Below are positions 46,411 to 54,098 of a stretch of 64,000 nt of DNA, in pieces; position 1 is the first letter of the stretch; each line of letters opens with the position of its first letter. A model generated the notes under the pieces. That model worked only from the letters and a program-made list of their open reading frames with translations. It had not been told where the DNA came from and made no database searches. The stretch lies in NCBI GenBank assembly GCA_023242925.1, contig CP096134.1:1201944-1265943 (forward strand). The letters run 5' to 3'. The position numbers and the translations under genes are program-made. The stretch is from Hyphomonadaceae bacterium JAD_PAG50586_4. Lineage in GTDB: Bacteria > Pseudomonadota > Alphaproteobacteria > Caulobacterales > Aquidulcibacteraceae.

Positions 46411-48680
<2,270 letters not shown>

Positions 48681-51212: not shown

Positions 51213-51767
51213 GTGATGTTGCGCCATTCGATTTTTGTGATTGCCGCCGCCACTCTGCTCTGTGGTGAAGCCGTAGCGTGTTCGATCCGTCCGCCGGTGC
51301 AGGACGTGCCGCTCGTCGGTGAGACTGCGGAGGCGTTCCAGCAGCGTGTCGAAGCGCGCCGTGCGCAGGAGGAAGCGGACCGCCAAGCGCGGCTGATCGC
51401 GTTTCAACGCCAGACCTGGGAAGAGGCTTCATCGGTCGTCATCGCCCGCGTAGTGCGCAGGGAAGAGGCCGTGCCGCTGCGTAACGATTATGGCGAAGTG
51501 TACGGGCGGTCACCGCGCACGCACTTGCGCGTGGTGCGCTGGCTGAAGGGGCAAGCGCGCGGGCGCCCAAGCTTCAGCGTGCGCTACGCTGGTCTAACCA
51601 GTTGCGGGCCCTTTGGCGGCGGCGATGCGGTCGATGGCGCGCTAGGTCAGGATTTTGTGGTGTTCCTGAGTGCGGGAAGACTGCGCGAGAGCCGGGTCAT
51701 CAATTCGCTCGCGCCCGATCGCGTGATAGTGCCCGAACTTCGTGACGTGCTGACCGCCTCGAATTGA
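51213..51767 (+). CDS. Secreted protein, TIMP/NTR-like
   Basis: Signal peptide ending AVA followed by mature Cys-Ser; ASSVVIARV, VRWLKG, TSCG and GQDFVVF. Confidence 0.6.
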   Translation: MMLRHSIFVIAAATLLCGEAVACSIRPPVQDVPLVGETAEAFQQRVEARRAQEEADRQARLIAFQRQTWEEASSVVIARVVRREEAVPLRNDYGEVYGRSPRTHLRVVRWLKGQARGRPSFSVRYAGLTSCGPFGGGDAVDGALGQDFVVFLSAGRLRESRVINSLAPDRVIVPELRDVLTASN

Positions 51768-51911
51768 GTGTCCGCACCCAAGCGCGTGTTTTTACGACGA
51801 ATTTCCCATCACTCCCCATTCACGTGACCGGCGTCATCTTCCCGTCGCGTCCTTAAGCGCCTAATAGAGGCGCAAGGGACGACTTGTGCAGAAGGCTTAA
51901 GGGGCGCGGCG

Positions 51912-53509
51912 ATGGCGGATGTCTTCATTTCCTACGCGAGCGAAGACCGCAATCGGGTCCGCCCGCTTGCTGAAGCGCTGCAAGCGCGCGGCTTCAATGT
52001 GTGGTGGGATCGTTCGCTGGCCGCGGGCCAGGACTACACGGCCGTTATCGAAAAAGAATTGAAGGGCTCAAAGGCCGTCATCGTCGTTTGGACGCAATCG
52101 TCCTCGGCCTCGACCTTCGTGCGCGACGAAGCGGGCCGCGCGCGGGACGAAGGCCGCCTCGTGCCGGTGCTGCTCGACCAAGTTCAATTGCCGTTGGGCT
52201 TCGGCGCCTTCCAAGCAGAAGATTTCACGCGCTGGAATGGCGGCGCCAACGCCCCGCAAATGCAGCTCTTGGAAGAAGTGCTGAAAGCAAAGCTTTCGGG
52301 CCGTGACGTCGATGGCAGCGCGATCGAACGTCGCCGTCGCAAACTCGGCGCGCGCATTCGCCTCGTCTCTGTACTGACGGTGATCGCGCTTGTGGTCGGC
52401 ATTGCTGTTGGCGGACGTTACCTGATCAACCCGCCAGAACCGGAAGTCACCCAAGCCGATCTTCGCGCGGAATTGCTGCGCTTGTTGGCTGAGGGCCAAC
52501 TCACGCCCGAGCAGGCCATCCAGCTTGCGCAAATTCTCGAAGCTGGCGCGCTGGGCGAAACGCAAAGCGCGTCGCTGAGTGAGGATCTCCGGCGTCCGCA
52601 CCGTCAGCCGAAGGCCGCACCGCGGACGGCGAAGTGCAACTCGCCTCGGTCTCGGAAGCCGAGTTCGACGCCACCGCGCGCGACACGTATCGCCAAGCCT
52701 TCCTCGCTGTCGCTCAGCATCCTGACGCGCAAGTGCGCTTGGCCGCCGCGCAGATGTCGCAACCGCAAACGCAAGCTGCGGCGATGCAGACGCTGTGGAA
52801 TTTCGCGCAGAACAATCCTGATGATCCGCTGCGTGATGAAATCTTCTTGCTCTGTGGTTCGGTCGGTGAAGCTAACAACAATCCGCTCGGCCAACGCGCG
52901 CTAGAAATCGCCACCAACCTTAACCCCCGCAATGCGCAGGTCTGGCGCATGCTGTCGCGCTCTTACGGTCGCGCCAACCGCGCCGGAGAGGCGACGGCGG
53001 CCGCGCAAGTTTCGGAAGCTGTGGTCGCGCAAGACGAAGGCCGCACGGCTGAAGCCGAACAGCAGCTTCAAGGCGCCGCCCAAAATCTCGAAGCGCCCGC
53101 TGTGCGCGCGCAGGTGGTTTCGGAACTGGGCCAGATCGCTGAGCAACGCGGCGATTGGACCTCGGCCAGCGCGCGCTTTGCACAAGCCTACACCTTGCGC
53201 GAACAAGTGGCCGACGCCGCGCCCGAGAATGCGCCAGCGCAGCAAGTCATTCAAGCGGACGCCCAGCAGCTTGTCATCGCGCTCGATCGCTCGGGCCGGA
53301 CGCGTGAAGCCTGTGAACGTCTGCGTCAAGCGCAGCAGCAGCACGATGTCGCCGCGCCCGATCAGGAAATCCTCGATCGCTGCCAAGCGGAATTCCGCAC
53401 GCAGCTCAGGTCGGACGTGCAATTGGCGCCAACGCTGCGCGTGCGCCCCGAAGTGATCCAGCGCCAACGCGGTATTACCCCGACGCCGACGCCAGCCCCA
53501 ACGCCGTAA
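51912..53509 (+). CDS. TIR (TIR_2) domain, single TM, TPR-like protein; frameshift near 52584
   Basis: DVFISYASEDR, VWWD, VIVVWTQSS and catalytic-position Glu in VRDEA; TM LVSVLTVIALVVGIAVGG; TPR-like ALEIATNLNPRNAQVWRMLSRSY and LGQIAEQRGDWTSASARFAQA. Confidence 0.85.
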
Positions 53510-53514
53510 CGACA

Positions 53515-53535
53515 GCTCCCCCGCAGGCGGGGAGC
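53515..53535. terminator. Hairpin between the convergent TIR gene and rsmD
   Basis: GCTCCCC-CGCAGGC-GGGGAGC. Confidence 0.55.
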
Positions 53536-53537
53536 AT

Positions 53538-54098
53538 TTAGGCGCGTTTCAAGAACAGCACTTTCGCGGCGCCATAGTCGCGCTCATCCAGTGTTTGGTA
53601 GCCCGGCAACACCGGGGCTTCATCTGAGGCGCATTCAAACACGATCAACGCATCGGCGCTGAGCCAACCTCCATTGCCGAGCTTGACCAAAGTCCGCTCG
53701 CCCAATCCCTTGTGGTAGGGTGGGTCAAGGAAAACGAGATCGAACGGCTCGCCGAGGCCCGCGGGCTTTGAGCCGAGATCGGTGGCGTCGCGGCGATGGA
53801 TGCGCGTGTTGCCGAAGAGGCCGAGCGCTTCGATATTGTCCCGGATCGCGCCGCGCGCGCTGGCTTCGGTTTCCACGAACAGGGCGAAACTCGCCCCGCG
53901 CGACACCGCCTCCAGCCCCAGCGCGCCCGAGCCCGCAAACAGGTCGAGCACCCGCCGGCCCTCAAGCCCCGGCGACCATTCGGCGTGCGCCAGGATGTTG
54001 AAAACCGCTTCGCGCGCGCGGTCGCCGGTCGGGCGGGTGTCACGCCCGCCGGGTGCGGCGATGGCGCGGCCTTTGAATTGTCCCCCAACGATACGCAT
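53538..54098 (-). CDS. rsmD: 16S rRNA m2G966 methyltransferase
   Basis: MRIVGGQFKGR, RPTGDRAREAVFN, LDLFAGSGALGLEAVSRGA and FLDPPY. Confidence 0.96.
   Translation of the reverse strand: MRIVGGQFKGRAIAAPGGRDTRPTGDRAREAVFNILAHAEWSPGLEGRRVLDLFAGSGALGLEAVSRGASFALFVETEASARGAIRDNIEALGLFGNTRIHRRDATDLGSKPAGLGEPFDLVFLDPPYHKGLGERTLVKLGNGGWLSADALIVFECASDEAPVLPGYQTLDERDYGAAKVLFLKRA

Follow-up and report, generated by a model that had tools for sequence, protein, structure and literature searches.

A predicted inner-membrane TIR protein with a TPR-like periplasmic domain in a family of Caulobacterales

Described TIR systems and the TIR gene of the window

The bacterial TIR enzymes known so far act in the cytoplasm, as sensors or effectors of phage defence. 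The TIR gene described here lies on the forward strand, at positions 51912 to 53509, of a 64,000-nucleotide stretch of contig CP096134.1 from Hyphomonadaceae bacterium JAD_PAG50586_4 (the window). Once a frameshift of one nucleotide (nt) in the assembly is repaired, it is predicted to encode a bitopic inner-membrane protein of 532 amino acids (aa) with an N-terminal TIR domain in the cytoplasm, a single transmembrane (TM) helix and a TPR-like helical domain in the periplasm. The reading that we put forward, and to which we give an even chance, is that this is one intact gene for an N-in/C-out receptor with an enzymatic-type TIR domain that would serve physiological signalling from the envelope to the cytoplasm. 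Full-text searches of the literature turned up no description of a bacterial TIR-TM-periplasmic-sensor protein. The protein is a lineage-specific variant of a broad TIR-TM-ectodomain class that is common in databases.

The best matches in both sequence and fold were AbTir, PdTIR and BtpA (Protein Data Bank entries 7uxu, 7uwg, 8g83, 3h16 and 4lzp), which have the box-1 motif DVFISYASED and the position of a glutamate residue in common with the window protein. These proteins are soluble, carry coiled-coil N-terminal regions and have a tryptophan in their WxxxE motif, whereas in the window protein the TIR domain stands at the extreme N-terminus, is followed by the TM helix and the predicted periplasmic domain, and has phenylalanine in place of the tryptophan.

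The Thoeris systems (ThsB with a ThsA-type effector, types I-XI) resemble the window gene in that the TIR protein is presumed to make an NAD-derived signal. However, the window gene has no adjacent effector (SIR2-SLOG, Macro-TM, caspase-like, SLATT or DUF2270), does not lie in a defence island and shows a core distribution. The absence of a Thoeris-type effector had already been stated in a first-pass annotation made from the sequence alone, and it was borne out by the neighbouring genes, which are the BCKDH E2 gene, a variable small gene, rsmD, terC and rluB. Moreover, the window TIR domain is itself membrane-anchored, whereas a survey of Thoeris describes TM helices in the effectors only (10.64898/2025.12.03.692087). 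Identity with Thoeris was rejected because there is no effector at the locus and the gene is neither accessory nor patchy, being present in 22 of the 23 genomes sampled within the genus and also in six sister genera. The single-protein TIR defence systems of E. coli (TIR-II and others), compared at the level of the TIR domain, also combine TIR and TPR in one polypeptide and require the catalytic glutamate; in their description the TPR part is not placed in the periplasm, and membrane features like those of Toll-like receptors (TLRs) seem to be absent from bacterial TIR systems (PMC11350192).

The same TIR-TM module (profile positions 1-175, E ~1e-49) was found in TIR-TM-(TolB-N-like)-TPR proteins of Caulobacterales and other phyla, such as an 805-aa protein (G029:C1) and a 770-aa protein (G033:C19). 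They have the same N-in/C-out layout, occur in several copies per genome and possess ectodomains of 600-650 aa in which, as seen in these two genomes, a TolB-N-like module ('IAVLPF...') precedes the TPRs. The window protein lacks the TolB-N-like module; its ectodomain is built instead from a SHOCT-like helix pair, followed by a linker and a solenoid of ~250 aa that is probably stapled by a cysteine pair.

With metazoan Toll-like and IL-1 receptors the window protein has in common a single membrane pass, a repeat solenoid outside and a TIR domain inside; clustering driven by the ectodomain would be an analogy. The order is reversed, with the TIR domain first and the TM helix as a signal anchor, the solenoid is TPR-like and not made of leucine-rich repeats (LRRs) or immunoglobulin domains, and the TIR domain is of the enzymatic bacterial type. 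Orthology to Toll-like receptors was rejected on account of the order TIR-TM-TPR-like and the lack of LRRs, and the resemblance is one of layout only. Among bacterial bitopic N-in receptors, RseA-type anti-sigma factors, DdvA of Myxococcus (PMC11506125) and CadC/ToxR likewise have an output domain at a cytoplasmic N-terminus, which one TM helix connects to a sensor in the periplasm. In the window protein the output domain is a TIR domain and not an anti-sigma or DNA-binding domain, and neither a sigma factor nor a protease partner is encoded nearby. If the receptor reading is true, TIR/NAD+ signalling would extend to extracytoplasmic cues and bacteria would have an analogue of the Toll-like receptor layout. 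The gene is a tractable test case, since it is a single gene, core and strongly conserved, and since cultured relatives are named in databases.

The frameshift in the assembled gene

In the assembly the TIR gene is split over two overlapping frames. The open reading frame (ORF) in frame 0, ORF1, runs from 51912 to 52904 on the forward strand, and a reading frame in frame 2 of the same strand stays open from position 52583 up to a stop codon at 53509. Past ~52590 the frame-0 translation is Arg/Pro/Cys-rich junk, and it is there that frame 2 turns protein-like. Joining ORF1 with the frame-2 ORF gave a protein of 532 aa, in agreement with the single protein of about 530 aa that the first-pass annotation had proposed, and the orthologues are uninterrupted. 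The closest relative (P0001, loci L013-L017) is an intact protein of 532 aa that is 96% identical to the window gene at the amino acid level and 88.7% at the nucleotide level; this intact protein was found on at least eight metagenome contigs. In comparison with these loci the only indel across the whole gene is a deletion of one nucleotide at 52584-52586, which shifts frame 0 to frame 2 inside the disordered, variable linker (aa 214-246). The same deletion separates the window copy from every orthologue, and the earlier placement of the frameshift near 52584 was thus exact. At this site the relatives read GAGGAATCG, with the pentamer GAATC (a GANTC), and the window reads GAGG-ATCTC. In Alphaproteobacteria GANTC is the motif methylated by CcrM.

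In order to judge the frameshift, the window was compared with a syntenic stretch of 100 kb in a 99%-complete genome of the same genus (G009) and with a 13.6-kb contig (L013). Relative to one or the other, conserved coding genes of the window carry at least eight frameshifts of one nucleotide. These are located at ~8003 in an acyl-CoA dehydrogenase gene (with 95% identity to one side of the shift), at ~12169 and ~12896 in the same gene for a GlxA/AraC-type regulator, at ~14441 in the YbaB/EbfC gene, at ~16819 in a histidine kinase gene, at ~40334 in a gamma-glutamyltranspeptidase gene, at 47014 in a leucine dehydrogenase gene and at 52584-52586 in the TIR gene. Four of these eight sites (8003, 12169, 47014 and 52585) coincide exactly with a GANTC pentamer of the relative, where the window has GATC-like strings; others lie in short homopolymers. 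Since GANTC covers 0.66% of positions, the binomial probability of at least four coincidences among eight sites is 1.3e-7. Within the 13.6 kb common to the window and contig L013 there are only two coding indels, both at GAATC. The genome itself is a single contig of 4.18 Mb with a completeness of 92.76%, compared with 99% in relatives. Genome-wide mis-calling of GANTC was considered and rejected, because the motif is as dense in this genome (1.26 per kb) as in a relative (1.31 per kb) and only a subset of the sites is hit.

Both halves of the gene are under strong purifying selection. Against the gene on contig L013, the ratio of nonsynonymous to synonymous substitution rates (dN/dS) was 0.023 in the TIR domain, 0.03 in the TM region and 0.044 in the TPR part, and neither half contains an additional lesion. 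The burden of frameshifts, their coincidence with GANTC, the low completeness and the purifying selection on both halves together make it very probable that the frameshift is an artefact of long-read basecalling or assembly and that the protein is produced at full length in the organism. The deletion at 52584-52586 would then be an error at a CcrM-type GANTC methylation site, and the gene would be intact in the living organism. A programmed frameshift or two natural genes were rejected, because all orthologues consist of one uninterrupted ORF.

We consider it very unlikely that the frameshift is real, in which case the strain would carry a recent pseudogene, or would express a shortened TIR-TM protein that ends in junk, beside a cytoplasmic TPR fragment. 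The deletion does stand in the assembly as given, the site is a mere two-base run and not a long homopolymer, and the gene is wholly missing from one genome of the same genus, so that its loss is tolerated. Against this stand similar one-nucleotide shifts in at least seven other conserved genes of the same 64 kb, with four of the eight sites at GANTC, the freedom of both halves from further lesions at dN/dS values of 0.02-0.04, and a completeness of 92.8%, which is low for a closed contig.

Overall, the assembly contains about one coding indel per 8 kb, clustered at GANTC, and in this it resembles unpolished long-read data. Because of this burden any frameshift or pseudogene call in the genome is unreliable. 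Two further TIR ORFs of the genome, at C1:3800612-3801448 and C1:839862-840875, have C-terminal tails that look like out-of-frame junk (Cys/Arg/Pro-rich), and these tails are probably further indel artefacts.

Domain structure and predicted topology

The features named in the first-pass annotation, that is a TIR_2 domain, a glutamate within VRDEA, an RRRRK stretch, one TM helix and a helical C-terminal part, were all found where it had placed them. The TIR domain (aa 1-135, 51912..52316, forward strand) was delimited with Pfam, AlphaFold2 (AF2) and Foldseek. It matched Pfam TIR_2 (PF13676) over aa 4-108 with E=6e-23 and 82.1 bits against a cut-off of 28, and ThsB_TIR weakly. The predicted local distance difference test (pLDDT) score of the AF2 model was ~90 for the domain (aa 1-130). 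In Foldseek searches the domain matched AbTir (7uxu) with a TMt of 0.74 and a root mean square deviation of 2.7 Å, as well as SPARTA TIR-APAZ, SARM1, BtpA and MyD88, and its fold is nearest to the enzymatic TIRs AbTir, SPARTA and SARM1. By sequence and fold the domain clearly belongs to the TIR_2/enzymatic TIR group.

A profile search of the Protein Data Bank paired Glu73 (codon 52128..52130, forward strand; FVRDEA, with VRDEA at aa 70-74) with the glutamate of 'DWTNYE' in AbTir and with that of PdTIR/BtpA. We take this AbTir residue to be the catalytic E208, equivalent to E642 of SARM1. Glu73 was kept in all alignments, in agreement with the catalytic-position glutamate named in the first-pass annotation: it does not vary among the 56 orthologues, nor in relatives whose overall identity is 34-45%, nor in the TIR paralogues of the genome. 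The surrounding motif FVRDEAxRAR is likewise invariant across the family and the paralogues, and the TIR domain is the most constrained segment of the protein.

The protein has no signal peptide and opens directly with TIR strand A. Only one strongly hydrophobic segment is present, with a Kyte-Doolittle 19-mer mean of up to 2.47; it corresponds to a single TM helix at aa ~149-168 (52356..52415, forward strand) according to hydropathy and AF2, which models an unbroken helix at aa 135-169. The basic stretch RRRRK (aa 140-144, 52329..52343, forward strand) lies on the predicted cytoplasmic side of this helix. Averaged over the 56 orthologues, the net charge was +5.3 at aa 134-150 versus -1.0 at aa 169-185. 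Cysteine is absent from aa 1-170, and all three cysteine residues, which are invariant in 56 of 56 orthologues, are found in the C-terminal part. Because of the charge bias across the TM helix and the restriction of the invariant cysteines to its C-terminal side, the protein is predicted to be a bitopic inner-membrane protein with an N-in/C-out orientation, in which the TIR domain is cytoplasmic and everything past aa 169 is periplasmic. The two lines of evidence agree with the membrane-spanning topology suggested before, with the TIR domain inside and the C-terminal part outside.

The predicted periplasmic part begins with a juxtamembrane helix pair at aa 181-213 (LLRLLAEGQLTPEQAIQLAQIL; 52452..52550, forward strand), which AF2 models as helices at aa 181-193 and 199-213 and which has a weak SHOCT-like match in Pfam (E=0.0085). 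Distant relatives retain the pair, and so do relatives that have no TIR domain. It is followed by the linker (aa 214-246), which has a pLDDT below 50 and a variable length, and by an alpha-solenoid of 13 helices at aa 249-495 (52655..53392, forward strand), identified with AF2 and Foldseek. The solenoid was modelled with a pLDDT of 93-97 in the full protein; the domain alone gave a pLDDT of 90.7 and a predicted template modelling score of 0.84. Its top Foldseek matches were all TPR proteins (APC6, CTPR, PEX5, OGT and MamA; E from 5e-4, probability 1.00), with low TM-scores of 0.2-0.5. A domain-only Foldseek search for a specific structural analogue of the ectodomain returned generic TPR solenoids only. 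On the window protein the Pfam models TPR_12, TPR_16, TPR_14 and HEAT_2 all remained under their gathering scores; a few orthologues have precomputed TPR_19 or TPR_12 matches. The domain is termed TPR-like here because the Pfam TPR and HEAT models were sub-threshold. Of the TPR ectodomain claimed in the first-pass annotation, the solenoid fold with its TPR matches in Foldseek was thus found, and a match to a TPR hidden Markov model above the cut-off was not.

Two of the invariant cysteine residues form a pair within the solenoid: C468 (codon 53312..53314, forward strand) lies in the helix at aa 464-478 and C491 (codon 53381..53383, forward strand) in the adjacent helix at aa 485-494. The pair is invariant in 56 of 56 orthologues and is retained in the most distant members (34-45% overall identity). 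In the model these residues probably form a periplasmic disulfide that staples the solenoid. The protein ends with a Pro/Thr/Ala-rich tail (53393..53509 with the stop codon, forward strand) that is variable in the alignment and has a low pLDDT; its dN/dS was 0.32, compared with 0.04 for the solenoid.

Distribution, locus and proposed function

Full-length, uninterrupted orthologues were found in 22 of 24 genomes of the same genus, and in 22 of 23 in a second sample. Full-length copies also occur in six other genera of the family (g16, g17, g18, g20, g21 and g22). Four genera of the family lack the full-length gene, as do the order's other families, in which the match was limited to the TIR-TM part (profile positions 1-175) of proteins of 600-860 aa with TolB-N-like and TPR regions. 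The carriers appear in public records under the names Terricaulis, Vitreimonas, Hyphomonadaceae, Caulobacteraceae and Caulobacterales. With the ectodomain as a query, ~30 clusters with the full-length domain were obtained among 1.84 billion representatives.

The locus is stable on one side and variable on the other. Downstream, the convergent gene rsmD (53538-54098, reverse strand) stands tail-to-tail with the TIR gene in nearly all related loci, and the block rsmD-terC-rluB-ribF is retained even beside relatives at 35-50% identity. Upstream there is a BCKDH operon in the genus and other genes elsewhere. When the flanking ORFs of 21 loci were clustered in search of a conserved neighbourhood beyond vertical synteny, only rsmD, terC, rluB and ribF and lineage-specific upstream genes were obtained. 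The TIR gene is monocistronic. As judged from these sequence comparisons, it is a vertically inherited core gene of one Caulobacterales family and not a mobile defence system. The accessory system proposed in the first-pass annotation was not confirmed in this respect; the gene is core, monocistronic and inherited vertically, and its place at a housekeeping locus is fixed.

This distribution bears on the possibility that the protein is a single-gene abortive-infection sensor against phages or predators, in which the ectodomain would detect a phage or a breach of the envelope and the TIR domain would kill the cell by depletion of NAD+. Single-protein TIR systems, including TIR with TPR and TIR with a TM helix, do protect E. 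coli (PMC11350192), and PADLOC gave weak matches to defence-type TIR models. However, these matches were at the level of the TIR domain only, the gene is core and syntenic family-wide (BCKDH operon, gene, rsmD/terC/rluB), not patchy and not in a defence island, and the strong purifying selection was not accompanied by any sign of diversifying evolution of the ectodomain. We regard such a role as distinctly unlikely. The status of a core gene, the lack of a linked effector and the presence of several TIR-TM paralogues per genome make physiological signalling likelier than a mobile abortive-infection module.

In the signalling mechanism that we propose, the periplasmic module would bind a peptide or protein ligand or report the state of the envelope, and this would alter the self-association of the receptor. 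TIR domains clustered at the inner face of the membrane would then cleave NAD+, yielding ADP-ribose (ADPR), a cyclic ADPR-type messenger or a lowered NAD+ level. AbTir, SARM1, ThsB and plant TIRs require self-association for catalysis, and clustering-dependent activation is inferred here because these established TIR NADases need it; the binding of a ligand, the clustering-dependent NADase activity and the role in signalling are put forward by analogy. More tentatively, it is possible that bacteria have true outside-in TIR receptors, in which a disulfide-stapled TPR solenoid senses the periplasm and TIR clustering leads to an NAD+-derived signal or to NAD+ depletion. The pathway would be a core one of Caulobacterales and one branch of a large TIR-TM-ectodomain class with several paralogues per cell.

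Several observations weigh against this signalling role. Phe69 replaces the tryptophan of WxxxE, as aligned to that of AbTir. One genome of the same genus (G017, 99% complete) is without the TIR gene. A positional orthologue, P0156 (L104:241-1293), located between the 3' end of mutL and the convergent rsmD, is TIR-less: its 350 aa run from a short N-terminus through a TM helix and the helix pair to the same TPR-like domain, in which the cysteine pair is present. In another relative, P0197, the TIR domain is degenerate and the ectodomain is kept. The periplasmic module can thus work without TIR chemistry. Finally, a receiver for a nucleotide made by the TIR domain was not found in searches of the genome for DUF2270, SLATT_1 and SIR2_2. 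DUF2270 had no match; SLATT_1 matched nothing in the controls either, so that its silence in the genome carries no weight; the single SIR2_2 (PF13289) match (C1:1993908-1994339) lies in an open frame of 1109 aa that is unlinked to any TIR gene and, by its sequence, may encode a defence-type SIR2 protein. A third relative, P0145, is doubtful as a TIR-less case, because its start lies 17 nt from the end of a contig, which may have cut it short.

These observations leave room for another arrangement, in which the helix pair and the TPR-like domain are the functional core, as a membrane-anchored envelope scaffold or a chaperone-like binder, and the TIR domain is a non-catalytic, homotypic adaptor to other TIR proteins of the cell in the manner of animal TLR and MyD88. 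The retention of the ectodomain in the TIR-less and degenerate-TIR relatives would fit such an adaptor, as would the lack of both a linked effector and a receiver domain, and possible partners exist in ~10 further TIR_2-type proteins encoded in the same genome, some of them soluble. In contrast, the invariance of Glu73 and FVRDEAxRAR in the family and the paralogues, the fold nearest to enzymatic TIRs and the strongest constraint of the whole protein on the TIR domain argue against such an adaptor, which we consider unlikely. The receptor with an enzymatic-type TIR domain is the reading that we retain.

Upstream of the TIR gene, identity to locus L015 is 96.5% over the ~114 nt that precede the ATG, and the gene farther upstream is unrelated. 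This conserved 5' region (51800..51911, forward strand), putatively the gene's own promoter or 5' untranslated region, was delimited by the comparison with L015 and by a motif, GTGACC-N4-GTCATCTTCCCGCCGCG-N8/9-GCGCCTAATA, which is kept in 13 orthologous loci amid diverging DNA. The spacing of the motif is unlike that of standard sigma-70 promoters, and the GTGACC motif may serve an alternative sigma factor as promoter or be the site of a regulator. A GC-rich hairpin of 7 bp (gctcccc / ggggagc, 53515..53535) separates the TIR gene from the convergent rsmD.

The secreted-looking 'TIMP-like' ORF of 184 aa at 51213-51767, which had been named as the co-oriented accessory neighbour of the TIR gene, occupies a variable slot. 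It had no match by tblastn in 17 related loci. In loci L013-L016 an unrelated exported protein of 152 aa takes its place, and elsewhere other genes or no genes are found. The ORF was rejected as a partner because it has no counterpart in these 17 loci and the slot is variable; conservation is confined to the ~114 nt next to the ATG. Paralogues of the 152-aa exported protein are encoded elsewhere in the genome, for example at C1:2716647-2716913.

Several of the other TIR_2 proteins of the genome are membrane proteins, namely TIR-TM-periplasmic domain, TIR-DUF805 and TIR with a C-terminal TM helix. A tandem pair at C1:2910627-2912699 combines a TIR-TM-periplasmic domain protein with TIR-DUF805 (Pfam E=2e-24), and adjacent pairs of TIR matches, similar to it by arrangement, were seen in many genomes of the same genus. 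More TIR-TM genes lie at C1:807006-807791 and at C1:3317667-3318728, the latter with a Cys-rich ectodomain. At C1:1571944-1573620 a reverse-transcriptase-like region with a YADD motif is fused to a C-terminal TIR domain, and this fusion is possibly a retron- or Abi-type defence gene.

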